A stretch of DNA of 57,135 nucleotides from a virus (IMGVR_UViG_3300035180_004116:1-57135); one strand, 5' to 3'. Shown: positions 8,964-48,564, counted from the first letter of the stretch. Made by a program: numbers and translations. Notes: a model not told the origin generated them from the letters alone.

Positions 8964-8993
8964 GGCGACGGGTTAACCCCCGTCGCCTTTTTT
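8964..8993 (+). terminator. Rho-independent terminator between convergent operons
   Basis: GGCGACGGG-ttaacc-CCCGTCGCC followed by T6. Confidence 0.85.
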
Positions 8994-9938: not shown

Positions 9939-12900
9939 CGCTCCCACGGGTCAGAGTTGGTAGCCGTCTTGTCACCGGCAATCGATTTCACGATGGCTTC
10001 ACGGATATCCTTCTGGCCACCGATGAACGGGATGCGTTGAGCTATCTCACGAACGGCCTGGCGCTGTCGTCCTGTCCCATCCGCGCCGCCGATCGCTGCT
10101 TCCGCGCCGGAAGCGATGTTCATTGCCCCCGTAAAGTCGCCGACCGACGGGCCGAAGATGTAGGAGAGAACCCGCATCTGCCCGTAGGCACCGTTGTCGA
10201 TCTGCGCGGCCTGGTTGTAGAGCAGGTCGCCGATCATGCCGAGGCCACCCGAAGAGATCAGACCCTCGACATACCAGGACAGGAAGTCCTGGCTGGTCGT
10301 GCCGCTGTCTTTCTTCCAGCCGAACTCCGCCGCCATTGCGTCGGTATTGTGGATGCGGAACTGGCGGCTCTGCTGGTCCTGGCCACCCCGAGATTGGGCG
10401 ATGTCGCGGACGGCAGACGTCCCGGCGCCGAAAGCGGCACCCGCGCTGAGCAGGTAGAGCAGGGGCTTCGGATTATTTGGGAACTCCTTGACGGTCCAGG
10501 CCGCCAGCTTCGCCGCCATCAGCGGATAGCTCTTGAGCTGGAAGATAATCGAGCCGACCGGCGTCTGCGCCCAGAGCGGAATGTCGTTGTGGTTCGGTGC
10601 GAACACCGCCTCGTTGGCGAACTTGATGATCGCCATACGGATGCGATCGTCGTTGGCCACAACGTCTTGGTCAGAGATCAGCTTGGCGCCAGGCCGGGCA
10701 TAATCATCGAGGCCGTAGTACCGAAGGTAGCGCATCGCCTGGCGGTACTGGCGGGTGTTGGTCTGACCGTTAACGATCATCCGCATCGCCCGCTCCTGTT
10801 CGGCGATCAACGATTGGTGGCCAACAGCCCCGGCGATCTGGCGGGTCATATCGGTCCAGGGATTGAGCAGGTTGGCGTGGAACATGGCGTTCGAAATGCC
10901 GCTGCCGTCCGTACCGTGGATGGTGGCCAACGAGTCATGAACGATGTTCTCGATCGAGACGCCGACATTGCGCATCATCTTGCGATAGGCGTCGTCGCCG
11001 GCAAATTTCGCAAAGCCTGACAGCCAAGCCTTCATGTTGCCGCTACGGATAAGCGGCATCACCAGGTCGGGGAAGCTGGCCACCGTGGCATAAGGCAGCA
11101 GGGTGACGGCGTTGAAGTTTCGGAGGAACTTCGAAGTGTGGGCCAGCGGCCGGTGGAATGCACCGCGGGCGAAGGGGCGACCCTGGTAGGACGCCATCAT
11201 GTCGTCCGTCCATTCGCGCTCGGACTGGCTGATGGCATTCCCTTGGTCGCCGAAATCGGCCAATCCCTCAACGATCATCTTGGCCCGAAGCTGGGTGTCC
11301 TTCAGGGTGTCGAGATCGGTCCGAGAATAGCTCATGAGCTGGTCGAACGCCGCACGCTTGGCTTCTTCCGTACCGCCACCATCCTTGATAATGCCGAAGA
11401 TCTCATCTGCGATACGCCGAGCTTCCGCCGGGTTGGATGTGATGCGGTCATAGATCCGGCCAACCAGCTCGTTGTCTTCCATGCCGCCGCCGAGACCTGG
11501 CGCCATGAACCGGCTGCGCAGGATCTTGTTCGACATGAGCGTCTGGGCCACCCCATCGATGCCAAAGTCGCGCACCAGCTTGTAGGTGTCGAAGCCGAAG
11601 TTCCGGGTTCCGAACCAACGTTGGTTCACGATCCTTCGGTTGGCAGCGTCTGAGTATTTGGCGACGATGCCCATCAGATTGTGATGGACGAAGTCGTAGA
11701 GGCCAGCCTTGTCCATCTCCTCCGGCGTGAAGGCCAGGACGCGCTGGAACGCCATGTCGATCTGGGCGTTACCTAGACTGCCATGCTCGTCGAGGTGGCT
11801 GATGGCATCGTCGTCGATCAGCTTGAGGACCAGCTTCTTGGCGCGGGCCTGTGCTTCGGCGGGGTCGATCGCCTTGGTGACTTGCCCGTCCTTTACCATC
11901 CGATCCCATTCCATCGTGAACGCCTTGGCGAAAGCGGAGATCGCCGCTTCAGGCTTCTCCTCCATGGCCTTGTTGTTCCAGACGATGGTGACGTAGCCGC
12001 CGCCGCGCTTCTTGCGGATGTCGCCGATCTTCACGCCGGCATCGCGCATTTGGCTGAGCTTCGCGTCGAAGAAGCTGGCAATCTTCTTGGCCGCCGCGGC
12101 TTCCTCTGGCTGGAGCTTTGTGAAATCACCGCTATCGAGCGCCCGGAAGATGCGGTCGTGGCTTGCCGGCTGACCAACGTCCATGTAGCCGAGGGTGAAG
12201 AACGGCCGGCTGTGGCGGAACCACTTCTTGAAGAAGCCGCCGGCATCCGGGAGCTTGCCCAAGATGTCATAGATGTCGGCGATGTCGCGGCCGGTCATCT
12301 GATGGACCATGGGGTACAGTTCTTCGCCGTATTTGGCGAGGACGTTCTGGTTGGTCTTGCGCAACCGGCCACTGTTGTTGACCAGTTGGAGTGGTGCCCC
12401 GAACCGGGCGGGCGTCTGCATGTCGTCGACGGTTGGCTGTTCCTGACGAAGCATCTTCTTCATCAGGCCGACAAGATCGGCCGGCACGCCGAAGTTCTGT
12501 CCGTCGACAGCCAATGGGTAAGTGGCCTTGGGATTGATCGGGTGGCTGGTGTCCATGATGGCGCTGGTGAACTCGCCACCGAACTTTGGCGCTCCGTCTG
12601 GTGCGTCTTCCGGTTGGTCGGGTAGATCGAGGAAGTCGTCGTCGACCGGGCGGACATCGGCTTCGTTGAAGACCAGGGTAGCGCCGTGGCTGCCATGGTC
12701 GAGATTGACGCCGTGGTAGCCGTTCTCCTTCAGGATGCCGGTGATCACGCGCTGCGCCCCTTCGCGGCTGACGCCGGTACGGGCGGAGATCGCGTTGGCG
12801 AGGACGTCCCGGAGAGCGGCGCCAGAGATCGTGGAGCCGGAGACCCGGCTGGCGGCGTCTGGTGACACCAGCCCTTCGGCTACCAGGCTGTCAGTCAGAC

Positions 12901-15900
12901 GTCGGACAAAAGAGTCGCCTGGCTGATAGGTGGCTAGGCTGGACAAGTCGGCAAAGTTGCCGTCCTTGACGAGGACGTTTTGGACGGCAGAGGGAATATC
13001 GACTCCGACGCTGGTGCGGAGGTCGCTCATCACGCCGTCGATCTGCCCATTCAGGAAGCGGATTGTCCCGACAGCCTCCGGCGACCGGGTCGACCTGAAG
13101 GTGCGGTAGGCTTGGGCAAGCTGGCTGTTCAAATCTTCGAGGGCCGAGATCTGGTCAAGTAGGCGTGACTTCTCGGGGATGTCCTTGCCACTGGCCATGA
13201 CGTCCGAGCGCAGGGTGTCCACGTCGACCAGGGTCTCAGGCGAGGCGATCTCGGCGCTGTCCAGAAGGTAAACGCCGTCCGGGCTGCGCGCCAGCTCGCC
13301 GTCAACCGGCCGCGACATGATGTGGCGGTTCAGCTCCTCGATCGATACGCCGGCCCAGTTCGACAGGCGAGCGAGCTGCTGGCCAGTCTTGGTGGTCAGC
13401 GCCTCGTGCCCGGTATCCGATGCGAAGATCGGGGGCACAACACCATCGACCATGGAGACCACGTCAGAGACCGGCCGGGTGCGACGAATGTTGCTGAACA
13501 TATCGCCGTACCAGGAGGTATGGCGGAACGCCCGGCGGGCGCTGTCATTGCCGAGAAGGCCATTGAGCAGATAGGCAGCTTGCTCCGTCATTGTGTCGAG
13601 CTGCGCGCCGAGCTTGGCTGCCAGGATCGGGTTGGTTCGCTCCAGGTTTCCGGCGGCATCGATTGCCTTGGCGCGTCCAACATTGTCTGCGACATAGTTG
13701 GCCCAGGCATTCCCGAACCAATCGATGGCGTCCTTCTCTGTTCCGGTGCCGCCATTGGCCAGGAGAGCGCGTGTGATGTTGGCCACGTCGGCGTCGTTCA
13801 TGGTCAGGCGGGTCATAAGCGAACCGACTTGGGCGCTAACTTCGGGTGATACCGAACGGCCGGCGGTTAGCGAGGTGGCGATGACGCGCAGGAGATCGCG
13901 CATCGAATTGAATTCGGCACTGTCAGACGTTGCAAGCTTGCCATGTTCTCCATCGGTACCGGCGATCTTCATCAGGTCGCTGGAGGTGACGGCATTCGGT
14001 GCGTCGAGAGTGCCAGGCTCCGCCCGGCCGATCATGTTGAACAGGCGGTAGGCCAAGGTCTTGGCGATGGCGTCTGTACGGGCGTCGCGGTTGGTCACCT
14101 TGCTGACCAGGTCGGCCAGGTCGGGACGGGTGGAGGCTGGTATGCCACCGCCATTGCCGACCCCGTGGCTATCGCTGATCTCTTGGCCAAGCCACCGCAA
14201 CGTCGACATATTGCTGGGGCTGAGGAGCGGCGTGGCGTTCTGTCCATTGCCGATCGCAGTCGCCGCGCGGCGATTGTATTCGATCGCAATAGCCCGGACT
14301 CGGGTTCCGTCGCCCTTCTTCACGGCATCGAAGAAGGCTTCCGACAGTGCGGAATTGGTCTTGTCTTTGATCGTGTTGTAGGCGCTCGCCAGCTCGGGGG
14401 ACATCTCGGGGCTGACATTGATCTTGCCGGCCTGTAGCCGCTGGCGCAGTTCAACGATCGCCGCCTTGCCACCATTGCCATCGCGCACGCGCTGGAAGAG
14501 CTGGGCATTGGTCGCAGTCTTGGCGTTGAAGGCGGCAGCCTTGGGGGCAGCCGCCGGCTTCGGATCGTTCTTGTGGCCAACATTGGAGATCTCGGCGGCG
14601 ACCTGCTTTGCCTCGCGCTCAAGGCGGGCGTTCCGCTGTTTATGGGCGGCGGCTGCCTTGCCGCGCGCGGCGCCACGCTTCATGCGTTCTTCTGGCGTGC
14701 CGATGCGGACGATGTTGCCAGCGTCGGCATCGACCTGTGGGTCGACACGCAGCGACCGGCCCTCTGCCTTCTGCCATTCCCTGGCCACGGCGACCTGGGC
14801 GTCATGCAGCTCGCGCGACAGGTCAGACGACAAAATATACAGTTGTGTGTGCTGCTCTGGTGTGTAGTCGCGGCGATCGAGGTTGATGCCGGTCAATGCC
14901 TCAGTCAGGCTCTTGGCTTCGCCGTCCAGACTGCCGGTCGATAGCGACAGGGCATTCTCGATATCGGCGACACCCTTCTGCTGGCGGAAGTGGACACTAT
15001 TTTCCTGCATCCACTTATGGACGATGTCGAGGGTCTGGAACAGGTTTTCGCGGCTGAGGCCCTGGATGAAGTCCTCGTCGGTCGGCCGTTTGTTTTTCCA
15101 GCCGAAGAGGTATCCCTTCATGTCACGGCTGACGTCGTTGAGCGTCTGATCAAGGCGCTCCGGCGATGCGTCGCGCATGGCCAGATAGAGCTGCTTGCGC
15201 CAGTCATCCATGCGGGAGATCGCCGATGTCAACAGCTTCCCACGATTGGTCTTGAACTCCATCGTGCTGAGATCTGGGTTCAACTTCCAGATCGAGGCGA
15301 TGCCCTTGTCGTCTTCGGACGGCAGCAGCGCGTCGAGGATCGGGACAAGATCTCGGTCAAAGAGTTCTAGTGCTGCTTCACTGTTGCTGTCGAGATACTG
15401 GAGGCGGAACAGCCCCATGATCTTCTTGGCAGCGTCCTTGATCAGCTCGGACATACGGTTGGCCCAAGAGCCGAACAGGCCCTGGATGCCTGGCACATCG
15501 CGCGGCGTGACGTCGCCTCGCCAATAGAGTTCGTTGTCCGCGTCGATACCGACGCGGCCATTCTTCATGAAGTACATGGTGTACTGGTCGGCCCAAAGCT
15601 CGGCCGGTGACTTGGTAACGCCACCATGGCCAGGCGTGATGTTTCGGCCGGTCAGACGTCCGGCCATCAGGGCGTCCTTGCCGTAGTAGTTCTGGAGCAT
15701 GATGTTCCAGAAGTCCCGACGCTGGTCGATCGACAGCAGGTTGGCGTAGCTCCAGTGACCCAGCTCATGGATGAGGCGCATGCTGACCGGTTGAGCTGCG
15801 ACGCCTGGTGTGATCTCGGCATCCCGGTTCGAGATGCCGATCGCATTGGCCAAGGTTTGGTCGCTTTTGGCGCCGATCTGTTCAGTGACCGAGCTGAGGC

Positions 15901-18900
15901 GGGTCGCCGCGTTGTTGCTGTCGGGGAAGAAGAACTTGCCGATCGTGTTAGAGCCGTCGTCAGCCAGCTCGACGATGGGCGGGATAGTCTCGCCCATGCC
16001 GGTGACGCGGCCGATGATGTCCATCACCGCCAGCCGTTCCTCTTCAGAATAGCTGGAGAAGATCGACTTTCCACGGCGCATACCCTTGGCGACGCGATCG
16101 GTTGATACCTTGAGCGGACCGGCCACCCGGTCATAGAAGACACGCTTGCGCCAAGACGGATACTTGATACCGTTGGGCGCGTACTTCTGAATGATGTCGT
16201 AGATCTGGTTGAGGCGCTGCACATGCTGCACCATCTCGGCGGTGCGGTCGGGCCACCCCGTATTCTCCATCTGCCACATGCGATCGTGGACGGCCTGGAG
16301 CGTGTTGAGGCTGCGGTCCCACTCAGGCACATCCAGCGGGTCGATGACCACGTCCTTGATGTTATCGAGGGTCAGAACCTTCCGTTCCGGCTGGCTCTCT
16401 TGCTTGACCCGGACTCGATCTTCCGGCGCGGCGTTCATGTAGTCGGGCAGTTCGCCGATCGGGCGGAACAGCTCAGACGCCGTCTTCGAATTGGATGGCG
16501 TACCCTCCGGCACGAAGCCGATTTCGTGGTTGCCCCATTTACCAACCATGTCGGCCACGGTCTGAGGTTGCCCAGACTTGACCTTCTTTACTGCTTCGAC
16601 CCTGACCTGGCGTTCGACGCGCGACTCATTCTTGTTGCGCACGGCGAGCAGTGTGCCTTCCGGCAGATTGAAGGAGTTGCGATCGGCGGTCGGCACTGGC
16701 TTGGCCTGGACCGGCTTGGCAACCGACGCTTCCGCAGGAACAGCGGCTTGCTCACGATACTTGTTGGTCTGGCGCCAATTCAGCGGGTGTTCGTTGGTCG
16801 GCTTGTCGCTGACGGCGCGGGTGAGCTGGCCGTTATCGGCCGCTTCCTTGATCAGGCTGTCATAGATCTTGGGAAGCGCGCGCTTCAGTTCTTCGCGGCT
16901 TTGGAAGTTGGCCGTGGACTGGACGCCAAACTCCTTGGCCCAAGCCAGCGTGAGGCTGCCGTCTTTATTGATGGAGATGTGGCCGACCGGCGCACCGAGG
17001 AACTTCACGCCAACCCGACCTTCTGGCAGTTGGGTGTAGCTGAAGTCGCCATTGAGATCGACTTCGATACCGCCATGGTTCACAACCATTGGCGGGTTTT
17101 TAGCCTTCATCGGCATGTCGGGGCCGGTGACGCTGGGCGTTGCGTACTTCTGATTGATCTCTTCAAGCTGCTTGGTCAGGACACCAATGTCGCCGTGCTG
17201 CTTGAAGGCATCGACGGCTTGCAGGATCTCCTGTTGCTTCTGAGGCGCTGACTCACGGGCGCGCTCGGCTTCCGCCATACGGGCGGCTTCGGCATCCACG
17301 TCGGCAACCGTGGGTGGCACGGTCTCGATAGCTGGCGCGACGTCCTTGCGCTTCTCCAGCCGCAGCTCCTTGGCACGGCGGCGGATCTTGCGGCGCAATG
17401 CGCGGCGCTCCTTCGGCGTCGTCGGGTGTTCATGGCCGAACTCGGCGATGATCTGCGACGGGATGTGGCCGCGCAGCAGACGGGCTTCTTCGGCGACGAG
17501 GCCAGCCTCTTCTTTCTTGGTGGCGCTCTTATAGGTGGCGAGCAGCGCGCGGCGAACCTTCAGTTCTTCGTTGATCCGGGCGCGCGTGGCCAGTGGCCCG
17601 CCTTCATGGACAAGGCCGATCTCATAGGGGTGGCCAACGATCTTCGCCAGTTCATCCCGGTTGTTCTTTTCCAGGATGCCGATCATCTTCTCTCGGATCT
17701 TAGTCAGACGCCGATATTCTGGGTCGGCAGTGACGGCGTTCTCATCGCCGAGCTTTGCCTTGGCGGCGAAGACCTGGAGTTGTCGTTCGACTTCGTCGAG
17801 CTGGGATTGGGCATCGACGGCGCGGTTGTAGCCGGCGAGTGCGTCAGTGATTTCCTTGACGCGCGCTTCCTGCTTGGCGATCTGTCCAGCATATTTAACG
17901 CGCTTGACGTCTGACTTAACGATCTGGCCACTGGCCGCATCGATGTTCGATTGCTCGATGCCACGCGCGGCGGCTTCTTCACTGCTGTCGAACAGACGGA
18001 CAAAGGAGTTGAGGAGGCCGAGATCGCTTTGCTCGGATTTCGGGAACAGCCGGCCGAAAAAGCCGCGCTCGTTCGACCGCAGGAAGGACTGCTCCTTGCC
18101 GCTTACCTTCCAGGAATTGTCGAGGCCGCGTTCCCAGATGCGGCCGGAGATGATGTCTTTGACCAAGACGACATGGCCGGTAGCCGGGTCGACACGGGTC
18201 ACCTCGCCGACATAGATCGGCGTGTCGGAGTTGATGTTGGTCAGGGCCTCAGCATCGACGCCGGGGAACTCACCGGTCAGGCGGAAGTTGGAGCCAAGGG
18301 CATAACTCGCCGTCGGCTCGTAGTCTGGAATGTCGGTGAACTCAGAGATCTTGCCGGTGCTGTCGCCAGAAAGGCCAACGCCAAGTCCGATCGATTTGGG
18401 GTTTCCACCCAGACGTTCGGTCTCACGGCGGATGAAGTCTGAGACGTTGGTCTCCGCCAGGGAGACAATCCGGTTCCAGCTCTTATTGGTCTGCGGTGCG
18501 CCCTGCCACAGACGGTCGATGATGTTGTCATACATCTCCCCGGCTTTGACACGGACGTCGTTGGGGATGACGTTGCTCAGGAAGAAGCGGTACTTCCGCG
18601 GCTTCTCGCCGGTCTTGAGGCCGTTGACGGTAACGTCAGAGCCAACGCCAACTTCCATCCCTTGGCCGGTCGGTTCGCCATAGACGCTGCGGACCACCTC
18701 GCGGCGGAAATTCTCGCCGTAGTCTTGCTCGATCTTCTGGAAGATCTCGTCGATGCTGGCGCCAGGGTTGGCGCTGAACACCGAATAGAAGACATTGGTG
18801 ACGCGCTGTTTCAGCCACTTGGCATGCTTGCGCATGACCCGATCATAGAGATCGCCGGCCTTGCCACTGGCCTTCACATAGGGGCCGAACTTGCCGAGAT

Positions 18901-21079
18901 CGTAGGCGGCATCCATGCCGATATCGGCAATGGCCTCGTCCATGATGTTGCCGGCTTCGATGTCGAGCGCATGCTCGATCATGATCTGGTTGATCATCGC
19001 CTGGGTATCGACGTTGCCGCCGGCTTCTCGGGCCGCTTCGATGCTGGCCTCAAGCTGCGCCTGCACAACTTCTGGCGACAGATCGTTCTCACGTGCGAAA
19101 TCTTCCAGACCTTCCGGGGTCGGGTCATATTCTTGGGTGACGTCGTTGGCCACCTGCTCGGTGAGCGCGGATGCTTTTGGCGTGGTACGCGGTTCGGCCG
19201 GGACGGCCACCAGGTTTGGAGCTGGTGCGGGGGTCGCCGCAGGTTCTGCCTGGCTCTTGATCGCGCGCAAGCTCGCCATATCGGCGCGCGCCTGGTTGAC
19301 GGCGGCCGTGTCCCCAGCGCGGCGGGCACGCTTGACCTCGTTCACCAATCCCTGCTGGACTGCCTTGTGATCATAGGCGGCGTCGGCCAGGCGCTGATGC
19401 AGTGTCGGGCTGAGGTGTTCCTGCTCCGGGTTGGCCACCTCCGGCAGGACATCATGCAGCGAGGCGTCCTGTTCGATTTGCGACGGGACATCGACGCCGG
19501 TCTTTTCCTGGAGGGCGGCGACGGTCTGGGCGATCTTCGCGTCGAGCTGGTCCGGCTGGACATCGACCGGGTTCTCTAGGGTGACGCCAAACTCGTTGGC
19601 CGCCTTCTGCCCCTGGAGAGCGTTGAGATGTTCCTGGAGCTGATCCGGATCAAGGAAATCCGCCGGCACGACGCCGGGGGCAGGCGTTTCAGTTGGCGCG
19701 GTCGTAGCAGGCGTCTCAGGCGTCTGGGTCGCCGCCTGGTCAGGATTGGCTGGTGCCGCTTCCGGTGCCTGGCCGTCTGGGTTGGCCTGGTTGGTCTCGG
19801 CTTTGGCATCGGCGGTCAGCGGTTCGCTGAGGCGGCCACCATCCTTGACGGCATCGACCACGTCTTCGGTCGGGATCGTGCGGTCAATGTTCCGCTTGAT
19901 CCGATCGAACATGAGCTGCCGGCGCTGGAGTTCCGACTGAAGGGCTTCCAGGCGCGATCGTGTTGCAGTGCGGGATTTGGCGTCGGCTGCCGGGCTGGCA
20001 TGCTCGGCCTGAAGATCGCTGATCTCCGATTCGGTTTTGGCGCGCAGCTCGTCCCAATTGCGGACGGTATTGAGGGCGTCGAGGTTCTGGTTGAGTGCGT
20101 CGAGCTTAATCTTCCAGGCGCGGGCGTTGCTGATCTTGGCGGCCGTGTCGCCCTGGTGCCTGTTGATCTCGTCTTCGAGATAGGTCTTCGCCGCCTCCAG
20201 CTTTTCGACCTGCTGGTCGTTCAGGCTGCCAAGGCTGGATGTCGGCACCGCCGGGGCGGCCGGTGGTGTGTCAGCGGGCGGCGTCGGCGGCGGTTCACTG
20301 GCGACCTGGGCGGCCTTCTCGGCGGCAAGTGCCTGTTCTTTGCGGATGACGTCGCGCTCGGCCATGCCACTGAAGGCGCCACCGACGCCGCCGGTAACGC
20401 CACCAAGGGTGCCACCAAGGAGAGCGCCAGTGCCGGCAGCCTCCAAGCTGCGCATCGGGCTATAGCCGTCTTGCAGGCCGATCTCGGTATCGCGCGCCTG
20501 GAGCAGGGCGTCTTGGGCGGTCGAGACCGCGGCGTTGCTCAGACCCTCGGAAATGATGCCGTGCTTGATGCCGGCCTTGATGGAAGCGCCAAGGGTGAGA
20601 TCCACGCCTTCCTTGGCCAGGCCGCGCATCGCCACCTTACCGGCGGCGCCACCTGCACCGAAGCCGATGAGGTTCAGCGGGTCGGCGACGAGACCAGGTA
20701 CTGTATCGAGGATGACCTTGCCGAGGTCGTCGCGCTGAGGCAGAGCGTCGAAGAGAACTTGCATCCGGGCCATGCGGCCGGCTTGCTGCGGATCAGCATG
20801 GTAGGCATCCCAGACGTCCTTGCCCATACCGACGGTATTGGAGCCACGGAAGTTGCGGTCTTTGTAGAAGTAGTCGAGAAGCTGGGAGCTGTTCTGGAAG
20901 CTCGCACCATCGCGCGTCTTGTAGAACTGTTCCATGTCCGCCAAGACCTGCGGGTCTTTAAGCGCGGCAGCGGCAGATTCTTGATTGAGTCCTTCAGCCC
21001 AGCCGAGCGTGGGAGCCGCAGGGCCGGTCTCCTGCCCAGGGACAATTGCTTGGGACAGGATCTTATCGAGGCTTTCCAT
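9935..21079 (-). CDS. Giant internal virion/ejection protein (3714 aa), polyvalent-type
   Basis: Last of the ejection-gene cluster; zincin HELGH...AELWA; degenerate ADP-ribosyltransferase-like motifs; C-terminal PLWAQTPVGSIIFQLKSYP region. Confidence 0.8.
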   Translation of the reverse strand: MESLDKILSQAIVPGQETGPAAPTLGWAEGLNQESAAAALKDPQVLADMEQFYKTRDGASFQNSSQLLDYFYKDRNFRGSNTVGMGKDVWDAYHADPQQAGRMARMQVLFDALPQRDDLGKVILDTVPGLVADPLNLIGFGAGGAAGKVAMRGLAKEGVDLTLGASIKAGIKHGIISEGLSNAAVSTAQDALLQARDTEIGLQDGYSPMRSLEAAGTGALLGGTLGGVTGGVGGAFSGMAERDVIRKEQALAAEKAAQVASEPPPTPPADTPPAAPAVPTSSLGSLNDQQVEKLEAAKTYLEDEINRHQGDTAAKISNARAWKIKLDALNQNLDALNTVRNWDELRAKTESEISDLQAEHASPAADAKSRTATRSRLEALQSELQRRQLMFDRIKRNIDRTIPTEDVVDAVKDGGRLSEPLTADAKAETNQANPDGQAPEAAPANPDQAATQTPETPATTAPTETPAPGVVPADFLDPDQLQEHLNALQGQKAANEFGVTLENPVDVQPDQLDAKIAQTVAALQEKTGVDVPSQIEQDASLHDVLPEVANPEQEHLSPTLHQRLADAAYDHKAVQQGLVNEVKRARRAGDTAAVNQARADMASLRAIKSQAEPAATPAPAPNLVAVPAEPRTTPKASALTEQVANDVTQEYDPTPEGLEDFARENDLSPEVVQAQLEASIEAAREAGGNVDTQAMINQIMIEHALDIEAGNIMDEAIADIGMDAAYDLGKFGPYVKASGKAGDLYDRVMRKHAKWLKQRVTNVFYSVFSANPGASIDEIFQKIEQDYGENFRREVVRSVYGEPTGQGMEVGVGSDVTVNGLKTGEKPRKYRFFLSNVIPNDVRVKAGEMYDNIIDRLWQGAPQTNKSWNRIVSLAETNVSDFIRRETERLGGNPKSIGLGVGLSGDSTGKISEFTDIPDYEPTASYALGSNFRLTGEFPGVDAEALTNINSDTPIYVGEVTRVDPATGHVVLVKDIISGRIWERGLDNSWKVSGKEQSFLRSNERGFFGRLFPKSEQSDLGLLNSFVRLFDSSEEAAARGIEQSNIDAASGQIVKSDVKRVKYAGQIAKQEARVKEITDALAGYNRAVDAQSQLDEVERQLQVFAAKAKLGDENAVTADPEYRRLTKIREKMIGILEKNNRDELAKIVGHPYEIGLVHEGGPLATRARINEELKVRRALLATYKSATKKEEAGLVAEEARLLRGHIPSQIIAEFGHEHPTTPKERRALRRKIRRRAKELRLEKRKDVAPAIETVPPTVADVDAEAARMAEAERARESAPQKQQEILQAVDAFKQHGDIGVLTKQLEEINQKYATPSVTGPDMPMKAKNPPMVVNHGGIEVDLNGDFSYTQLPEGRVGVKFLGAPVGHISINKDGSLTLAWAKEFGVQSTANFQSREELKRALPKIYDSLIKEAADNGQLTRAVSDKPTNEHPLNWRQTNKYREQAAVPAEASVAKPVQAKPVPTADRNSFNLPEGTLLAVRNKNESRVERQVRVEAVKKVKSGQPQTVADMVGKWGNHEIGFVPEGTPSNSKTASELFRPIGELPDYMNAAPEDRVRVKQESQPERKVLTLDNIKDVVIDPLDVPEWDRSLNTLQAVHDRMWQMENTGWPDRTAEMVQHVQRLNQIYDIIQKYAPNGIKYPSWRKRVFYDRVAGPLKVSTDRVAKGMRRGKSIFSSYSEEERLAVMDIIGRVTGMGETIPPIVELADDGSNTIGKFFFPDSNNAATRLSSVTEQIGAKSDQTLANAIGISNRDAEITPGVAAQPVSMRLIHELGHWSYANLLSIDQRRDFWNIMLQNYYGKDALMAGRLTGRNITPGHGGVTKSPAELWADQYTMYFMKNGRVGIDADNELYWRGDVTPRDVPGIQGLFGSWANRMSELIKDAAKKIMGLFRLQYLDSNSEAALELFDRDLVPILDALLPSEDDKGIASIWKLNPDLSTMEFKTNRGKLLTSAISRMDDWRKQLYLAMRDASPERLDQTLNDVSRDMKGYLFGWKNKRPTDEDFIQGLSRENLFQTLDIVHKWMQENSVHFRQQKGVADIENALSLSTGSLDGEAKSLTEALTGINLDRRDYTPEQHTQLYILSSDLSRELHDAQVAVAREWQKAEGRSLRVDPQVDADAGNIVRIGTPEERMKRGAARGKAAAAHKQRNARLEREAKQVAAEISNVGHKNDPKPAAAPKAAAFNAKTATNAQLFQRVRDGNGGKAAIVELRQRLQAGKINVSPEMSPELASAYNTIKDKTNSALSEAFFDAVKKGDGTRVRAIAIEYNRRAATAIGNGQNATPLLSPSNMSTLRWLGQEISDSHGVGNGGGIPASTRPDLADLVSKVTNRDARTDAIAKTLAYRLFNMIGRAEPGTLDAPNAVTSSDLMKIAGTDGEHGKLATSDSAEFNSMRDLLRVIATSLTAGRSVSPEVSAQVGSLMTRLTMNDADVANITRALLANGGTGTEKDAIDWFGNAWANYVADNVGRAKAIDAAGNLERTNPILAAKLGAQLDTMTEQAAYLLNGLLGNDSARRAFRHTSWYGDMFSNIRRTRPVSDVVSMVDGVVPPIFASDTGHEALTTKTGQQLARLSNWAGVSIEELNRHIMSRPVDGELARSPDGVYLLDSAEIASPETLVDVDTLRSDVMASGKDIPEKSRLLDQISALEDLNSQLAQAYRTFRSTRSPEAVGTIRFLNGQIDGVMSDLRTSVGVDIPSAVQNVLVKDGNFADLSSLATYQPGDSFVRRLTDSLVAEGLVSPDAASRVSGSTISGAALRDVLANAISARTGVSREGAQRVITGILKENGYHGVNLDHGSHGATLVFNEADVRPVDDDFLDLPDQPEDAPDGAPKFGGEFTSAIMDTSHPINPKATYPLAVDGQNFGVPADLVGLMKKMLRQEQPTVDDMQTPARFGAPLQLVNNSGRLRKTNQNVLAKYGEELYPMVHQMTGRDIADIYDILGKLPDAGGFFKKWFRHSRPFFTLGYMDVGQPASHDRIFRALDSGDFTKLQPEEAAAAKKIASFFDAKLSQMRDAGVKIGDIRKKRGGGYVTIVWNNKAMEEKPEAAISAFAKAFTMEWDRMVKDGQVTKAIDPAEAQARAKKLVLKLIDDDAISHLDEHGSLGNAQIDMAFQRVLAFTPEEMDKAGLYDFVHHNLMGIVAKYSDAANRRIVNQRWFGTRNFGFDTYKLVRDFGIDGVAQTLMSNKILRSRFMAPGLGGGMEDNELVGRIYDRITSNPAEARRIADEIFGIIKDGGGTEEAKRAAFDQLMSYSRTDLDTLKDTQLRAKMIVEGLADFGDQGNAISQSEREWTDDMMASYQGRPFARGAFHRPLAHTSKFLRNFNAVTLLPYATVASFPDLVMPLIRSGNMKAWLSGFAKFAGDDAYRKMMRNVGVSIENIVHDSLATIHGTDGSGISNAMFHANLLNPWTDMTRQIAGAVGHQSLIAEQERAMRMIVNGQTNTRQYRQAMRYLRYYGLDDYARPGAKLISDQDVVANDDRIRMAIIKFANEAVFAPNHNDIPLWAQTPVGSIIFQLKSYPLMAAKLAAWTVKEFPNNPKPLLYLLSAGAAFGAGTSAVRDIAQSRGGQDQQSRQFRIHNTDAMAAEFGWKKDSGTTSQDFLSWYVEGLISSGGLGMIGDLLYNQAAQIDNGAYGQMRVLSYIFGPSVGDFTGAMNIASGAEAAIGGADGTGRQRQAVREIAQRIPFIGGQKDIREAIVKSIAGDKTATNSDPWER

Positions 21080-38394: not shown

Positions 38395-38663
38395 CAGTCA
38401 ATCCCGAGCTTGTTCATGAGGCGGATGAGCTTGGGTTTGGTGAGGGCGTACTTGTCGTCTTCGACGTAGCGTTGTTCGAGGTTGGCCATCTGGGCAGCGA
38501 GGGTGGCTGCCGCATCCTGGAGTGCCGCCAGGCCCTGGCGCCGTTCGGTGATGAAGGCTTCGAGCTGGGTCGTGAGTGGAAGCATCGCTTCCGCGATGGC
38601 GATCTCGATATAGGCCCGCACCAGCGGGTCGATCATAGGATCGAGCTGTTCCTTGGTGGTCAT
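38394..38663 (-). CDS. Hypothetical helical protein
   Basis: Coupled to both portal and fibre genes. Confidence 0.65.
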   Translation of the reverse strand: MTTKEQLDPMIDPLVRAYIEIAIAEAMLPLTTQLEAFITERRQGLAALQDAAATLAAQMANLEQRYVEDDKYALTKPKLIRLMNKLGID

Positions 38664-40546
38664 CGCGCTGCCCTCATTGGGATCAAGTTGCCGCGCTCGA
38701 CTTGGCGCTGGACTTGGTCGTTGGGCATGGTCGTGGCACCACGCATCTTCTCCATGAGGGAGAGTTGCTGGCTGGGGGACATGCCCTGCTGTTGCTGTTC
38801 GGGGGAGATCTTGAACTGGTCGATGTCGCCGATACCCATCGAGCGGATGGCTTCTTCGACGATGCGGCCGGCGTTGTATTCCATGTTGAGGCCGGTCTGC
38901 TGGAGGATCTGGAGGATGTTCATCCAGGTCTCCGGGCTACGGGTCGGCTCGATCGGGAGGGTGCCGTCGACGACCATGTAGTTGATGTTGCCCTGAAGAT
39001 CGGCCACGTTGAAATCGAGGTAGCCGTCTTGCGCCATGCCGACGAGCTGCGGGTTGATTTCGTCGGGGTTGATGCGCAGCGAACCGTTGAAGGAGACGGC
39101 GTCCTGAAGGTTCTGGACGATCATGTGGATCATCGGCCGGATGGTCGTCGCCGAAAGAACCCGCGCGATGACGCCCAGACGCTGACTGCCGAGCTGGGAG
39201 AGGCGTTGGATCTCAGTGGCGGTGCGGACGCCGTCTGAGGTCGGCATGCCTTGCTGGGCGTCGCTTGCGGCGCTCAGGCGCTGCTTCAGCTCTGAGAGGG
39301 CTTGGATGTCTTGCCAATGACCGCGGGTGACGTCGGGAACTTGAGCGATGAAGACACCGTCTCCGGGCTTGGAACCGGGGAGGGTGCGAACCACCCCCCA
39401 TGGATTGCGGTCGACAAGATCGGGGACGGAGACTTGGGTGGGGTCGACGAAGATGAGGTTCGAGAGGGCCGCTTGGACATTGTCGATCCTTGAACGGAGG
39501 AGCCAGGTTGCGATGTTGTGAAGGGGCATCAAGACGTCGTAGAGCGATTGGCTGTAGGTCTTGTGCCGGTCGAAATAGAGGCCACCAATGGTGACGGGGA
39601 ACTGGCGTCCATAGGGGTTGAGCTGGGCGCGGATGACGTATTTCTCGTCGAGGATGGTGAAGACCATCCAGATCTGCTGAATGGACGGGACGCCAATCTC
39701 GTAGCCGTTGAGGCAGACCCAGGCTTCGTCGATGACGCGGGCCGGCGAGGTTGTGAAGAAGCGGCTCTCGCCGCGCTCGGCCGGTTCGGCGGGGTCGATG
39801 TTCAGGCCGTTGGCGTCGTCCTTGAAGAAGTGGTGGGAGAGCCACCCGAACTTGGAGAAGCCGGACTTGCGCAGCAGGGGATACTTGTTGAGCTTGGGAT
39901 AGAGGCCACTGCCAATGAGAGCGGAGGTCGAGGCATAGTCCGAGAAGACCATGTAGGCCATTTTCGACCAGTCCCCCCAGGCCACCCGTGGATCTGGGAA
40001 GGCCCGGCGCGGGTCGGAATTGACGATGATGTTGGTATTGGTGTTGCCGTCCCAGACCACCTTGGTCGGGGCAAAGCCGTAGCGGATAGAGTCGAGCGTG
40101 AGCTGGGCCAGGCGGGCTTCGCCTGCGGTCCGGCGCATGTGTTGATGGAGCAGACGTTCGAAGATCGCGGCCGCCTTGCGGCTATTGCGGTCCAGACCTT
40201 CGAGCTGGAACATCGGATTGCGGCCAGTGATGGCCGCCATCTGGTAGGTCAGGACCGTGTCGGCGATCGCGCGGGTATCGGCGATGACCGCCTTTTCGCG
40301 GAACTTGGTGGCCTGGGGCGGTACGTAGACGTCGTGTGCTCGGTCGGCTTCCAGCCAGGAATCGTACCGGCGGGAGATCTTGGAGTGAGACATCTCCGAG
40401 ATCTGTTTGACGAAGGCGACGATCTTTTGCTCTTGCTCGTCGGAGAGCATGTCGGAGACGTCGCTATAGTCCTGAAGGGGGGCCATCAGGTTTGCGAGGT
40501 CGACCACGATCTCGTCGTGGGATTGGCGTGTGTCGCGATAGTCCAT
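38660..40546 (-). CDS. Portal protein
   Basis: 628 aa directly after terL; RTATEI, QQGM motifs and Gln-rich tail of podoviral portals. Confidence 0.88.
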   Translation of the reverse strand: MDYRDTRQSHDEIVVDLANLMAPLQDYSDVSDMLSDEQEQKIVAFVKQISEMSHSKISRRYDSWLEADRAHDVYVPPQATKFREKAVIADTRAIADTVLTYQMAAITGRNPMFQLEGLDRNSRKAAAIFERLLHQHMRRTAGEARLAQLTLDSIRYGFAPTKVVWDGNTNTNIIVNSDPRRAFPDPRVAWGDWSKMAYMVFSDYASTSALIGSGLYPKLNKYPLLRKSGFSKFGWLSHHFFKDDANGLNIDPAEPAERGESRFFTTSPARVIDEAWVCLNGYEIGVPSIQQIWMVFTILDEKYVIRAQLNPYGRQFPVTIGGLYFDRHKTYSQSLYDVLMPLHNIATWLLRSRIDNVQAALSNLIFVDPTQVSVPDLVDRNPWGVVRTLPGSKPGDGVFIAQVPDVTRGHWQDIQALSELKQRLSAASDAQQGMPTSDGVRTATEIQRLSQLGSQRLGVIARVLSATTIRPMIHMIVQNLQDAVSFNGSLRINPDEINPQLVGMAQDGYLDFNVADLQGNINYMVVDGTLPIEPTRSPETWMNILQILQQTGLNMEYNAGRIVEEAIRSMGIGDIDQFKISPEQQQQGMSPSQQLSLMEKMRGATTMPNDQVQRQVERGNLIPMRAAR

Positions 40547-40591: not shown

Positions 40592-42238
40592 TTATTCTCC
40601 CCAGCCTTTGAACATGGTGATGGGGGTCGATGTGAACGTCTGGGACATTTGGGAGTTGAGGGAGAGGGACGAGTTGAAGGGTTGATTGAGGATGGTTGAG
40701 TCGCCGATGTGCATCTTGGAGATGGCGTCGAGGGCGATGGTGACGGCGTCGACCTGGTCGTCGTTCTTGCCGGAAGGGAAGGCGACGGTCTCGGAGATGA
40801 AGTCGTCCAGCCAGGTGGCGTCCTTGGGCAGAAAGACCCGGCCACCCTCAATGAGGGGCGTGACGTTGTGGGCGCGGGCCACCTTGTCTTCGCGGACTTT
40901 GACGGGGATGACCGAGACGCCGGCCTCGGCGCGGAGCGTCTGGATCAGGGATTGGCCGGAAGCTTTGTCTTCGACGTAGAAACCGCGCAGGCCACGGCCC
41001 CGCCAGCGCAGGTTGATCGTGGTCGCCATCTTGGTCAGGGCCGGGAAGTCCCACTTGCCCCGGATGATGTCGAGGATGTCGATGTCGCCGTCGTGGCGGG
41101 CGCCAGCGATGGCAAAGACGGAGTAGTCGTTCTGGGTCTTGTCCTTGAAGGCGGTGTCGACGCCGATGACGATGCCGGCATAGGGGTTATCGGCCAGGTT
41201 CGGGACGGTCGCGCGATAGCGCCACCAGTTCGATTTGATGAGGTTGCCGCCCTTGATGAAGGGACGTTGCTGGTAGAGGGATTCGAACTCGCGGGGGTCG
41301 CGGGCCTTTCTTTTGAGGAGTTCGGATAGGGGGAAGCGATCGGGCCACAGGGCCGCGTCTACCGGGGCGTCGACATATTTGATGGGTTTGTTGAGGTGCT
41401 TGGGGATGTAGAGCGGGTCGGACGGGTCAAGGCGGTGACGCGGGCGTTTGAGGGACGATGGGACTTGGCGGATGGCGGGGATCGAAATGTGGACCCACTC
41501 GCCATTCTTCCATTCGTCGGTTTCCATGATGCGGCCGCACAGGTCGTCTGGGTGCCACCGGGTCAGACAGACGACTTCGATCGGGGGCTGGCCTTCGTCG
41601 TCGGGCTGTTTGCGGATGGCCACCGCGGACGTGTAGTCGGACCAGACCTTGTTGCGGACGGTGGCGGATTCGGCGTCGCTACGGTTCTTGATGGGGTCGT
41701 CGATGACGAGGAGGTTGGCCGGGCGGCCGGAGGTGGTGCCGTCCATGGAGATGGCGAAGTAGTTGCCGCCGTCCGTGGTAGTCCAATGGTCCGAGGCGGA
41801 GGTGTCGCGCAGGATGGCGAAGTCCGGGAAGGCTTGGAGGATGGAGGGTTCGGAAGAGAGGCGTTTGACTTCGCGGCCGAAGGTCTTGGCGAGTTCGGTG
41901 TTGTAGGAAACAGACATGGTGTGCCGGAACGGGCGCCGGGCCATGTAGTAGAGAGGGAACAGGACGGTGGCCAACCAAGATTTGCCGTGCCGGGGCGGCA
42001 TGTTGATCATCAGTTTGTAGCAGGGTTGGCCGGCGTCGTTAGTAAGGGTGCCCCGTTCCAGCCGATCGAGCTTGTCGATCAGGTCGAGCTGGAAGGGTTG
42101 GAGCTGGTATTTGGGGAAGAGGAGTTTGACGAAGCCAAGGAACGAGGATTCGGCTGCTTGGACGGCGAGCAGTTGGGCAGCGGCTTGGGCAGGCGTGACG
42201 ACGGCGGTCTTACGGGGCGTCGCTGGGGTCTGGGTCAT
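40592..42238 (-). CDS. terL: Terminase large subunit
   Basis: MPPRHGKS, LLVIDDPIK, TRWH.DDL.G, LYQQRP, VDTA, EDKASG, DDQVDA. Confidence 0.96.
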   Translation of the reverse strand: MTQTPATPRKTAVVTPAQAAAQLLAVQAAESSFLGFVKLLFPKYQLQPFQLDLIDKLDRLERGTLTNDAGQPCYKLMINMPPRHGKSWLATVLFPLYYMARRPFRHTMSVSYNTELAKTFGREVKRLSSEPSILQAFPDFAILRDTSASDHWTTTDGGNYFAISMDGTTSGRPANLLVIDDPIKNRSDAESATVRNKVWSDYTSAVAIRKQPDDEGQPPIEVVCLTRWHPDDLCGRIMETDEWKNGEWVHISIPAIRQVPSSLKRPRHRLDPSDPLYIPKHLNKPIKYVDAPVDAALWPDRFPLSELLKRKARDPREFESLYQQRPFIKGGNLIKSNWWRYRATVPNLADNPYAGIVIGVDTAFKDKTQNDYSVFAIAGARHDGDIDILDIIRGKWDFPALTKMATTINLRWRGRGLRGFYVEDKASGQSLIQTLRAEAGVSVIPVKVREDKVARAHNVTPLIEGGRVFLPKDATWLDDFISETVAFPSGKNDDQVDAVTIALDAISKMHIGDSTILNQPFNSSLSLNSQMSQTFTSTPITMFKGWGE

Positions 42239-42662
42239 TGGGTGGCACGTCGATTACAGGGGTGGCGGACGTGCGTTGCTTGGGTTGGGGCATCATTCCC
42301 CGCGCGATCTCTTCGAGTTGCGCCCTGGTCAGTTGATTGGCCGGGCGATCGTCGTGGATCGTCGTCATTTTGTGTTGGAGATCAGGCATGACTTTGCCCA
42401 GGAGGACCTGGAACAGCTTGATTTGCTGGTTCGACCAGGTCGATTTGCCGGCGAGAACGTCTTTGGCGTCCTTCATGTTGGCTTCGACTACCGAATAGAT
42501 GTCGTCGCGGAGCTTGTTTATCTTTTTGAGCGTGAGCTTTTGGTCAGACGTCGGCTCGATCGGGGCGGGCGCGATGACAGCCGTCGTCTTTTCGGGCGGC
42601 GGCGACGCGCGAAGGCTGATTTTCACGGAGGTCTGACTACGTTTGGGCGACGGAGTTTCCAA
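42210..42662 (-). CDS. terS: Terminase small subunit (start uncertain)
   Basis: Overlaps the terL start; LLGKVMPDL and LTRAQLEEI motifs. Confidence 0.65.
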   Translation of the reverse strand: METPSPKRSQTSVKISLRASPPPEKTTAVIAPAPIEPTSDQKLTLKKINKLRDDIYSVVEANMKDAKDVLAGKSTWSNQQIKLFQVLLGKVMPDLQHKMTTIHDDRPANQLTRAQLEEIARGMMPQPKQRTSATPVIDVPPNDPDPSDAP

Positions 42663-42904
42663 TTTTGCTCGCGCTATTGGAGGGGTTGGGGATGGCGATT
42701 GCGGATCTGAACGGCGGGGTCGGGGTGCCGCCCCCTATGTCGGTCTCGGTATGAAAAGAGTGTAGTTCCTGGCAGAAAATTGGCAGGTTTACAGCTAACT
42801 GTCTGGAAAAGCAGCATTTCCACTACCTCTCGGAGGGGTTAGTACCAGTTAAGACGTTAACTATTGTGTTCAGACTGTTAAATATATTGAACACTCAGAC
42901 TGTG

Positions 42905-42936
42905 ACTATCAATCATCTTCGACAACCCTGTCGTCC
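42905..42936 (-). promoter_or_regulatory. Putative late promoter heading the packaging operon
   Basis: GGACGAC-N19-GATAGT. Confidence 0.5.
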
Positions 42937-43019
42937 CTCCAAAGGAGGGGGGAGGCGAGTGGTCCTGGTGAGCTGGACAGATGGCGATCCCCGCCACGCA
43001 GCTCGCGGAGATCACGCAC

Positions 43020-43331
43020 ATGAACGCCACCAAGACCGCCTTCTCGATGACCCTCGACCAGATGCGCGCAGCCGCGCCGAACGCAAGCCCGGAGCTTCGC
43101 TCCGCGATGCTCGCTGAGATCGTCCGTCGGGGCGAGAAGCACGCGGCCAAAGGCCGCAATCCCGAATCCTACCGCGCAGCCTGGGCCTTCGTGAACGGCT
43201 CGGGCGTCTCTGCGCCCAAGCCCGTGAAGCGCACCAAGGCGCCCAAGGTCGCAGATGACCGTCTGACCAAGATCGAGCAGTCGATCGCCGCGCTCGCTCA
43301 GGCCGTCGCCGCTCTGTCGGCCGCGCATTGA
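43020..43331 (+). CDS. Early hypothetical protein (basic, Ala-rich)
   Basis: GCGGAG RBS; first gene of the rightward region. Confidence 0.7.
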   Translation: MNATKTAFSMTLDQMRAAAPNASPELRSAMLAEIVRRGEKHAAKGRNPESYRAAWAFVNGSGVSAPKPVKRTKAPKVADDRLTKIEQSIAALAQAVAALSAAH

Positions 43332-43332
43332 T

Positions 43333-43416
43333 CGCACGCCAGGGCAGCCGGATGCCAACGGCTGTCCGCACGTGCAATCCCGCACGGCTCTGCCCGCCAT
43401 GGGCAAACACGGAGAC
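43333..43416 (+). ncRNA. Structured intergenic RNA element, copy 1
   Basis: Conserved with copy 2; 9-bp stem with compensatory changes. Confidence 0.6.
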
Positions 43417-43422
43417 CAGACC

Positions 43423-43620
43423 ATGACCGACCTCAACAGCATCGTCGCACTTCGCTGCCTGCGCCTCGTCAAGCAGCAGGAAGCCACCAGCGCCATGCGC
43501 GAGGGTCAACGCCGTCTTGAACACGGCCAACCCAGCCGCTCGATGTACGAGCAAGCCTTCATCAGCGCCCATCAGATGATGGACCTCGATCGCATCATCT
43601 CCAGCGCATCGGGCGAATAG
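43423..43620 (+). CDS. Early hypothetical protein (65 aa)
   Basis: ACACGGAGAC RBS. Confidence 0.7.
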   Translation: MTDLNSIVALRCLRLVKQQEATSAMREGQRRLEHGQPSRSMYEQAFISAHQMMDLDRIISSASGE

Positions 43621-43624
43621 GGAA

Positions 43625-43694
43625 CGCACGCCAGAGCAACTGCCACAGCGGTTGCTCGCACGTGCGCTCTGCACGGCAACCCAAACATGGAGAC
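43625..43694 (+). ncRNA. Structured intergenic RNA element, copy 2
   Basis: Same layout as 43333-43416. Confidence 0.6.
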
Positions 43695-43698
43695 TAGA

Positions 43699-44304
43699 AT
43701 GACCACCACGTATGCACAGCTCACCCTCGTGAACCCGACCGTCAACCAGATCTCGATCTCGCCGCTGGCTGACGATAAGGGCCAACCACGTCTGTGGCTC
43801 AACCTCACGTCTGAAGAACTCCTGACCATCGCCCAGACGGGCAACACCGACGCGGTCGATATCCTGAAGCTGCGCTGGAACAAGAAGGTCGGCGCCGGCA
43901 AGAAGCCCAGCTTCGGCGCCCAGTCGGCCCTCGCCAAGCTCGGCATCGTTCCCGCCCGCGAATCGGCCATCGACAAGAAGCTGGCCGCTGTCGCTCCAGC
44001 GATCGACGCCATCAAGAACGCGGCCAAGGAAGCCGAGACCAAGCCGACCAAGACGACCGAAGACTACATCGCGCTCGGCCAGTCCAAGGGTATCGAATTC
44101 GTCCTGAACGCCCTGGCCAAGGCCAGGGCTGCCAAGTCTCCCAACCCGGCCACCGTGGCCAAGCTCGAAGGCGCCGTCAACTTCCTCACCTTCAACCCGA
44201 CCAAGCCCGCGCCGACCAAGCCATCGGCCGACGTGTCCAACCTGGCCAAGGCCCTGAAGGCCAGCGGCGTCGATGTCCAGGCGCTGATCAACGCCCTCCG
44301 CTAA
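43699..44304 (+). CDS. Early Lys/Ala-rich hypothetical protein
   Basis: ACATGGAGAC RBS; strongly biased codon use. Confidence 0.8.
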   Translation: MTTTYAQLTLVNPTVNQISISPLADDKGQPRLWLNLTSEELLTIAQTGNTDAVDILKLRWNKKVGAGKKPSFGAQSALAKLGIVPARESAIDKKLAAVAPAIDAIKNAAKEAETKPTKTTEDYIALGQSKGIEFVLNALAKARAAKSPNPATVAKLEGAVNFLTFNPTKPAPTKPSADVSNLAKALKASGVDVQALINALR

Positions 44305-44359
44305 CCGACCAGCCAGGCCAGGCGCAGACGGCGCCTGGTCGCCTGGCGTCTGATAGACG

Positions 44360-44389
44360 TTGACAACGAAAGTTGTCACAGGTAATCAT
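44360..44389 (+). promoter_or_regulatory. Sigma70-like promoter overlapped by a palindromic operator
   Basis: TTGACA-N17-TAATCA; TGACAAC-gaaa-GTTGTCA at 44361-44378. Confidence 0.7.
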
Positions 44390-48517: not shown

Positions 48518-48564
48518 ATCACGCAGAAAGTAAATCACGCAGACGCCGCCCCTTCGGGGGCGGC
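48512..48564 (+). repeat. 16-bp tandem duplication plus UUCG hairpin
   Basis: AAGTAAATCACGCAGA x2, then GCCGCCCC-ttcg-GGGGCGGC. Confidence 0.85.

Follow-up and report, generated by a model that had tools for sequence, protein, structure and literature searches.

What is the function of two alike, palindrome-containing sequences that occupy the spaces separating the first, second and third genes of an operon in a temperate phage? A first-pass annotation of this DNA had interpreted them as a duplicated RNA element with two mutually exclusive folds. The stretch analysed, hereafter called the window (57 kb; 57,135 nucleotides), is a near-complete virus record which is classed as a provirus.

The phage and its relatives

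The window is a temperate phage of the CRP-810 type and marine-type. Its nearest cultured relative is Roseobacter phage CRP-810 (OR671924.1), with a TerL identity of 53%. CRP-810 has the same gene order as the window: divergent from the terminase genes, five small genes are followed by cobS, cobT and, further on, an integrase gene. In the window, the CobS-like and CobT-like genes lie on the plus strand and the integrase gene at the right end; a primase-polymerase/helicase is encoded as well. The minus strand harbors the packaging genes and also a structural block which includes an ORF of 3714 aa:

40592-42238, minus strand, large terminase gene
42210-42662, minus strand, small-terminase-like gene
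38660-40546, minus strand, portal gene

According to the CRP-810 paper (PMC11288001), phages of this type form a widespread marine family, mostly temperate, with 251 uncultured related genomes, and most of the relatives possess an integrase.

The stretch occurs, without any difference, in four DNA sequencing runs, and the list of runs containing it includes no RNA run. In three metagenome runs it is located on contigs of 52-55 kb, which is near the phage's own size, while the protein collection has it on a contig of 308 kb; the element may exist both integrated and free. The 3714-aa ORF (9935-21079, minus strand) is situated at the end of the structural block and revealed neither a Pfam nor a PHROG match. 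The corresponding region of CRP-810 contains two large hypothetical genes (gp34 and gp35) beside 'internal virion protein D', and the ORF probably encodes a fused internal or ejection protein. It had prompted the idea of an N4-like hairpin promoter for a virion RNA polymerase. This candidate was rejected because of the missing Pfam and PHROG matches, and also because of the integrase, the synteny with CRP-810, the position of the giant region beside 'internal virion protein D' in CRP-810 and the G.U pairs on the non-template sense.

The A-B-C operon and its candidate control signals

The operon, which diverges from the terminase genes, begins with the genes A, B and C, none of which revealed a Pfam or PHROG match. 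The two copies of the element fill the A/B and B/C gaps, copy 1 from 1 nt past the stop codon of gene A to the start of gene B and copy 2 from 4 nt past the stop codon of gene B to the start of gene C. The following features were identified:

42887-42916, plus strand, candidate sigma-70-type promoter of A-B-C (TTGAAC-18-AATCAT), read by eye, below the threshold of the scan
42981-43331, plus strand, gene A, first gene of the operon (116-aa orphan from the ORF list, GC3 0.85; stop codon TGA 43329-43331)
43404-43416, plus strand, Shine-Dalgarno context of gene B, CAAACACGGAGAC (GGAG 43411-43414; ATG 43423)
43423-43620, plus strand, gene B (65-aa orphan; stop codon TAG 43618-43620)
43682-43694, plus strand, Shine-Dalgarno context of gene C, CAAACATGGAGAC (ATG 43699)
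43699-44304, plus strand, gene C (201-aa orphan)
44316-44340, plus strand, GC-rich hairpin without U-run, directly past the stop codon of gene C and upstream of the next site
44360-44389, plus strand, promoter-like site after gene C (TTGACA-18-AATCAT), reported by the promoter scan
48545-48564, plus strand, GC-rich hairpin without U-run, directly past a stop codon, between the CobS-like and CobT-like genes

A search with protein C against 5.8 billion proteins yielded protein C itself as the sole match. With protein A as bait, one match was obtained (L201), which was spurious (coiled-coil), and the CobS-like protein as bait for relatives gave none. The two candidate promoters have the second hexamer AATCAT in common. 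Since a promoter-like site lies after C, a weaker look-alike before A and none inside the copies, A-B-C has the appearance of a single transcription unit, whose RNA would thus contain the elements. A sigma-70 promoter within the element was rejected because the scan reported no promoter-like site inside either copy. Contexts resembling ACRYGGAGAC occur upstream of seven gene starts of the operon, including those at 44417, 44686, 46688, 48585 and 51308. The box CAAACAYGGAGAC, which the first-pass annotation had counted among the parts of the element, therefore is the general Shine-Dalgarno context of this operon and was removed from the element.

By its gene order, the operon can be regarded as putatively early. 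The products of genes A and C and of the first genes of two relatives (L206 and L210) are rich in Lys, Ala and Pro and have no family match; the L206 product contains repeated AKPK-like stretches. First-gene products may be nucleic-acid-binding early proteins. In the divergent control region (42860-42920), TCAGACTGT occurs twice within a near-palindrome of 19 nt, and the promoter-like site before gene D (44360-44389) overlaps the palindrome TGACAACGAAAGTTGTCA. The 5' flank of the hairpin at 48545-48564, ATCACGCAGAC, shows a faint likeness to box 1 of the element described below.

Sequence and conservation of the two copies

Each copy is composed of a box 1, an inner hairpin, a palindrome whose second part is box 2, and a box 3:

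43333-43390, plus strand, copy 1
43333-43341, plus strand, box 1 of copy 1, CGCACGCCA (pairing part GCACG 43334-43338; partner 43371-43375 in the MFE structure, probability 0.985-1.0)
43342-43367, plus strand, inner hairpin of copy 1 (9-bp stem GGGCAGCCG 43342-43350 / CGGCTGTCC 43359-43367; 8-nt loop)
43368-43375, plus strand, palindrome of copy 1, GCACGTGC (box 2, CGTGC, 43371-43375; N6, then box 3)
43382-43388, plus strand, box 3 of copy 1, GCACGGC, alternative partner of box 2
43625-43679, plus strand, copy 2
43625-43633, plus strand, box 1 of copy 2, CGCACGCCA
43634-43657, plus strand, inner hairpin of copy 2 (9-10 bp stem, GAGCAACTG 43634-43642 / CGGTTGCTC 43649-43657; 4-6 nt loop)
43658-43665, plus strand, palindrome of copy 2, GCACGTGC (box 2, 43661-43665; N5, then box 3)
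43671-43677, plus strand, box 3 of copy 2, GCACGGC

The duplication reads exactly as it had been annotated. The boxes of both copies are identical and enclose a stem of 9-10 bp; the stems differ at four pairs, all of which are still paired, while no relation is seen between the loops. In both copies, each of the 14 pairs (28 cells) is a standard one, two of them having changed on both sides and two on one side via G.U, while only 21-39% remained paired when the partners were slid by one to three columns. A shuffle control on the pairing, which had just two sequences to work with, gave 131/500 and hence no discrimination. Between the copies, 24 of the 24 box positions are identical, and 6 of the 18 stem positions differ with every pair kept. 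On the minus strand, C.A mismatches would stand in place of the G.U pairs, and the structure is therefore one of plus-sense RNA. Together with the location in the gaps, this bears out the annotated structured plus-strand element between cistrons of one transcription unit.

The inner stems contain six to seven G-C pairs each and thus correspond to the GC-rich hairpin of an intrinsic terminator. A U-run is missing, since in both copies the stem is followed by GCACGTGC and GCA takes the place of the U-run; within the eight bases past the stem there is one U in copy 1 and there are two in copy 2. A scan for terminator-like sites reported neither copy. Canonical U-run terminators are present elsewhere in the window, at 8964-8987 (plus strand), 31712-31680 (minus strand) and 55513-55492 (minus strand), and the loss of the U-run is therefore specific to the two copies. 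Downstream of the palindrome, MAFFT aligns GCTCTGC in preference to GCACGGC. Of the palindrome core CACGTG, the window contains 4 occurrences, two of them in the elements, versus 19.8 +/- 4.1 expected; this roughly five-fold depletion suggests avoidance of a restriction site or of the palindrome.

The arrangement GCACGTGC-N(4-8)-GCACGGC was found twice in the window and 0.00 times in 100 shuffles. The sequence CGCACGCCAG occurs exactly twice; with up to two mismatches, there are 88 matches compared to 116 by chance. A covariance model was built from the two copies and the whole window was scanned with filters off. The copies scored 86.5 and 77.7 bits and their reverse complements 22 and 18 bits. 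Because nothing unrelated exceeded 11.4 bits among the 36 matches listed, there are two copies and no third. No Rfam family reached its gathering score anywhere in the window, and matches between 42500 and 44500 were at chance level (E above 1.7). In the main text of the CRP-810 paper (PMC11288001), the words terminator, promoter, hairpin and intergenic have 0 occurrences each, and a literature search returned no description of the element; both the Rfam result and the word count agree with the view that this RNA is undescribed. A comparison of the DNA with 50,697 phage records gave no match. An exact-box scan of IMG/VR returned 80 stretches, none with the element. In GTDB genomes, a first TerL scan found nothing; a scan with a TerL alignment found 80 loci, of which only L240-L247 encode a TerL with 45-54% identity, none with the element and only L244 with partial synteny.

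Predicted folding and alternative pairing

Each copy is predicted to fold into a rod composed of a short base helix, which overlaps the stop-codon region, the box1:box2 helix (5-6 bp), a 3x3 internal loop (CCA/GCA) and the inner stem of 9-10 bp. The rod amounts to approximately 21-24 bp, with interruptions, and begins 1-5 nt past the upstream stop codon. Fold energies of -43.4 and -32.5 kcal/mol were calculated for copies 1 and 2, with z values of -2.4 and -3.1, respectively. At equilibrium, box1:box2 has pair probabilities of 0.935-1.0 and box2:box3 of at most 0.05, and the box2:box3 hairpin appeared in the MFE structure only if box 1 was masked or cut away. On the accessibility of the Shine-Dalgarno site, neither fold state had a consistent effect.

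The 5' arm of the inner stem has a second, distal partner in each copy, GGGCAG/CUGCCC (43342-43347/43390-43395) in copy 1 and CAGAGC/GCUCUG (43632-43637/43666-43671) in copy 2, a perfect 6-nt complement to the start of the arm in both cases; this pairing co-varies between the copies. Enforcing it costs +11.0 kcal/mol in copy 1 and +9.3 kcal/mol in copy 2. In L210 and L368, two of the related phages described below, the pairing matching the distal one forms the base of the rod.

Terminator cassettes in related phages

Relatives were gathered from IMG/VR using TerL as bait. The best matches of the covariance model outside the window were weak (18.5 bits, E 0.038; 14.8 bits, E 0.4). They belong to L204, L203 and L210 and are situated exactly in the gap past the first gene of the syntenic operon. 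Model R1 was too narrow, as L380 and L368 were not found by it. In L202, L203, L204, L210 and L380, the cassette follows gene 1 of the TerS-divergent operon, and the products of these first genes are similar to each other; L368 and L370 carry it after a first gene of their own. The L210-type cassette consists of GCACA, a GC-rich hairpin, seven U, GUGC (the last U preceding it), GCUUUU, GCACA and then the ribosome-binding site. This corresponds to a canonical intrinsic terminator (z -4.0 to -5.2) in which the flanking sequences prolong the helix beyond the U-run. L380, a diverged relative of this type, has a wholly different stem and the 3' flank UUUGUGCGCUUCUGCACG. In L368, L370 and L371, the 15 nt comprising box 2, loop and box 3 are identical to those of copy 2 of the window and stand behind a U-run; the match is to a phage with a TerL identity of just 48%. 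The same layout was also found in L344/L363, L206 and L325. The U-runs of the relatives comprise four to eight U between the hairpin and box 2, with only four in L206, a genome of 65% G+C. The alignment of the 5' flank across lineages is ambiguous, since the flank of copy 2 can also be aligned to another part of the L210 and L368 flanks.

As the relatives possess an ordinary terminator with the same kind of boxes at the syntenic place, a terminator origin of the element is indicated. Judged by this comparison, the element belongs to a family of terminator cassettes located close to stop codons and is not an RNA class of its own: the relatives mark it as derived from an ordinary cassette of the intrinsic terminator kind, probably a terminator that has turned into a post-transcriptional control element.

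Joint change of the three boxes

The pairing parts of boxes 1, 2 and 3 in the different lineages are as follows:

Window: GCACG / CGUGC / GCACG
L210-type: GCACA / UGUGC / GCACA
L380: GCACA / UGUGC / GCACG (U.G pair)
L368-type: GCACA / CGUGC / GCACG (C.A mismatch in box1:box2)
L344: CGCAC / GUGCG / CGCAC
L206: CACCA / UGGUG / CACCA
L325: GACAC / GUGUC / GACAC

The frequency of this pattern was determined for hairpins on the early-operon side with a stem of at least seven pairs, a loop of 3-8 nt and a run of at least four T, identical hairpins being collapsed; the two window copies were added by hand, and the L368-type was missed (loop above 8). The exact three-box pattern of 5-mers was present in 7 of 76 early-side elements, compared to an average of 0.51 over 300 shuffles of the flanks, none of which gave more than 3, and in none of 37 elements elsewhere in the loci. 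The number of independent box sets among the seven is five, since L202 and L204 belong to a single lineage and both window copies to a single genome. Evidence against the module comes from the 69 early-side elements without the exact pattern, from the C.A mismatch in L368 and from L363, which has no box 1 any more and whose pairing register is shifted. A small hairpin of five pairs, starting no more than four bases from the U-run, follows 26 of 74 early-side terminators (8.3 +/- 2.6 expected; 0 of 300 shuffles reach 26) and 7 of 37 terminators elsewhere (5.2 +/- 1.9 expected).

The joint change of the three boxes in five lineages supports mutually exclusive pairings. Of the notion that the central CGTGC can choose between two partners, the exclusive pairing potential has thus been strengthened by the relatives, whereas a balance between two folds has not, since the long hairpin dominates and box2:box3 stays at or below 0.05. 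The annotated role as a switch of early expression is at most putative.

Proposed function and alternative explanations

Inner stems that diverge with their pairs kept, identical boxes, the loss of the U-run and the scarcity of CACGTG suggest that both the hairpin and the boxes are under selection and that termination is not efficient here. We tentatively propose, and give it somewhat less than an even chance, that each copy is a terminator-derived, bistable, cis-acting RNA module which works post-transcriptionally via processing, stability or coupling to upstream translation. Without a U-run, polymerase would mostly read through, and the element would act after transcription. The rod, with about two helical turns and an internal loop, could be a barrier to RNA decay or processing enzymes or a substrate of them, a double-strand-specific RNase of the RNase III kind being the candidate enzyme. 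A role as a pure 3'-exonuclease barrier fits poorly, since a hairpin 1-5 nt past a stop codon would be opened by ribosomes. Two events would make box 1 unavailable, namely its coverage by a ribosome that terminates at the neighboring stop codon, or a cut in the rod; box 2 could then re-pair with box 3 and form a small hairpin at the head of the leader of the next cistron. As a result, A, B and C might differ from cistron to cistron in stability, in translation or in both.

A wider proposal, which we consider possible but doubtful, is that CRP-810-type phages carry an undescribed bistable module at the first terminator of the terminase-divergent operon. In it, box 2 would be contested by box 1, next to the stop codon, and by box 3, ahead of the following ribosome-binding site. 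The module would thereby sense upstream translation, or read-through and cutting, and decide what becomes of the downstream cistrons; a duplicated, terminator-less and purely post-transcriptional version would be present in the window. If true, this conserved RNA module at the first gene boundary by the packaging genes would be the first handle on gene regulation in CRP-810-type phages, and would illustrate, in compact and natural form, how a terminator evolves into a post-transcriptional element.

The copies might instead be leaky terminators or attenuators, at which a fraction of the polymerases pauses or terminates even without a U-run, resulting in a gradient A > B > C, while the boxes only lengthen the stem. 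The canonical terminators of the relatives, the conserved position past the first gene and the reduction to four U already seen in L206 would suit such a function, which we nevertheless consider unlikely: the one or two U past the stems and the failure of the scan to report either copy contrast with the canonical terminators that the phage maintains elsewhere, and box 3 is left unexplained. Improbable, too, is a purely translational coupling switch, in which a ribosome at the stop codon of A or B melts box1:box2 and box 2 flips to box 3, so that the next initiation is altered without any cleavage. As expected for such coupling, the stop codon and box 1 are 2-11 nt apart in the window copies, the L210-type, L344 and L206, and masking of box 1 does bring the box2:box3 hairpin into the MFE structure. 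However, the distance between box 3 and the Shine-Dalgarno site ranges from 4 to approximately 40 nt, neither state consistently hides or frees this site, and a long distance separates box 1 from the apparent stop codon in L325. Recognition of the RNA by a trans-acting factor, either as a nut- or put-like antitermination signal or as the operator of a phage RNA-binding protein, would account for the identity of the boxes and of the CCA/GCA internal loop in both copies, which goes beyond the needs of pairing. The nearby encoded proteins are small, basic and unannotated, and the terminator after gene 1 in the relatives resembles the layouts of early-operon antitermination. Since there is no Rfam match, the boxes vary between lineages with the pairing kept, so that structure and not sequence would be recognised, and the small hairpin of the relatives follows the terminator instead of preceding it, we regard this explanation as very unlikely.

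Two further explanations dispense with a function of the RNA. Conserved flanks between genes without detectable homology across phages, a gene B that is bracketed by two copies as an inserted module would be, and the otherwise avoided CACGTG are what a feature of the DNA would predict, be it a boundary linker promoting module exchange or an operator on the palindrome. Such a feature is hardly probable, though, as the spacings vary (35-39 nt from box 1 to box 2, 4-11 nt in the loop between boxes 2 and 3), the G.U pairs exist on the plus strand only and compensatory changes are unexpected for a linker. Functionless remnants of decaying terminators, whose apparent compensation would stem from mutational correction of quasi-palindromes, likewise have a very low probability. 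The lost U-run and the mere two copies are in keeping with decay; the identity of all 24 box positions while 6 of 18 stem positions differ and all remain paired is not, and neither is the 15-nt identity with a phage whose TerL identity is as low as 48%. Our preferred explanation thus remains the terminator-derived module acting on the RNA.

Comparison with known systems

[quoted passage not shown] They differ in their U-run of four to eight U, by which they look like working terminators, while the window has GCA at this place and a duplication around an extra gene.

At the int terminator/sib retroregulation site of lambda, the sequences flanking the terminator extend its helix in read-through RNA only, and the longer duplex gives this RNA a fate other than that of terminated RNA. 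The same extension is found in the relatives, where box 2, located 3' of the U-run, pairs with box 1. In contrast to sib, the element of the window is placed between putatively early cistrons and not behind int, has a third box as alternative partner and lacks the U-run. The early RNase III sites of T7 and T3 occur singly in the gaps between cistrons, as irregular hairpins that span about two turns, contain an internal loop and are alike within a genome. An intercistronic hairpin of at least approximately 20 bp with an internal loop is also what the predicted rod amounts to. This likeness is one of predicted structure only; the internal loop of the window is a symmetric 3x3 loop and the host is not an enterobacterium. 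On these comparisons, the element may in its action come closest to the RNase III sites of lambda, which depend on read-through, or to the intercistronic ones of T7.

The put RNAs of HK022 act in cis on the early transcription units and are present in two copies per phage genome whose stems co-vary. The window differs by a single rod instead of two adjacent stem-loops, by the location of both copies in one operon and by the terminator that relatives have at this place. In an attenuator or riboswitch, an alternative pairing competes with the terminator stem, while box1:box2 and box2:box3 both lie outside the inner stem; a sensor domain upstream was not found by Rfam in the window. By the features that can be assessed on sequences, the element belongs to none of the known families compared.

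RNase III targets RNAs of T7, T3 and lambda (PMC5371410). Cluster K mycobacteriophages possess SAS/ESAS, a motif directly before many start codons of which a subset has an upstream inverted repeat with a variable spacer (PMC3203893). A start-associated context and an inverted repeat are superficially shared by the window. However, the SAS/ESAS repeats have conserved 17-bp arms with a spacer of 4-13 bp and occur at many genes, whereas the window has arms of 5-6 nt around a covarying hairpin of 24-26 nt at two sites, and its elements are thus no SAS/ESAS members (PMC3203893).

Further elements in the related phages

L206 possesses two copies of its cassette on the minus strand (4067-4154 and 3010-3105), whose 11-bp stems are identical and whose loops are UUCG and ACA; unlike the window, this duplication shows no divergence of the stems. 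In the L210-type operon there is a second terminator (L203 approximately 1690-1720 and L204 approximately 1030-1062, minus strand), which is followed by a small hairpin, AGUGCUGUUCUGGCACA, and then by a promoter-like TTGACA. CRP-810 (L237) harbors a duplicated intergenic element of its own at approximately 818-860 and 1740-1780, before gp04 and gp06, composed of a CA-rich run, the hairpin GUCCC-GAAG-GGGAC and UUC(A/C)UG. Its first copy begins with TAACGCACGC, directly past a stop codon.
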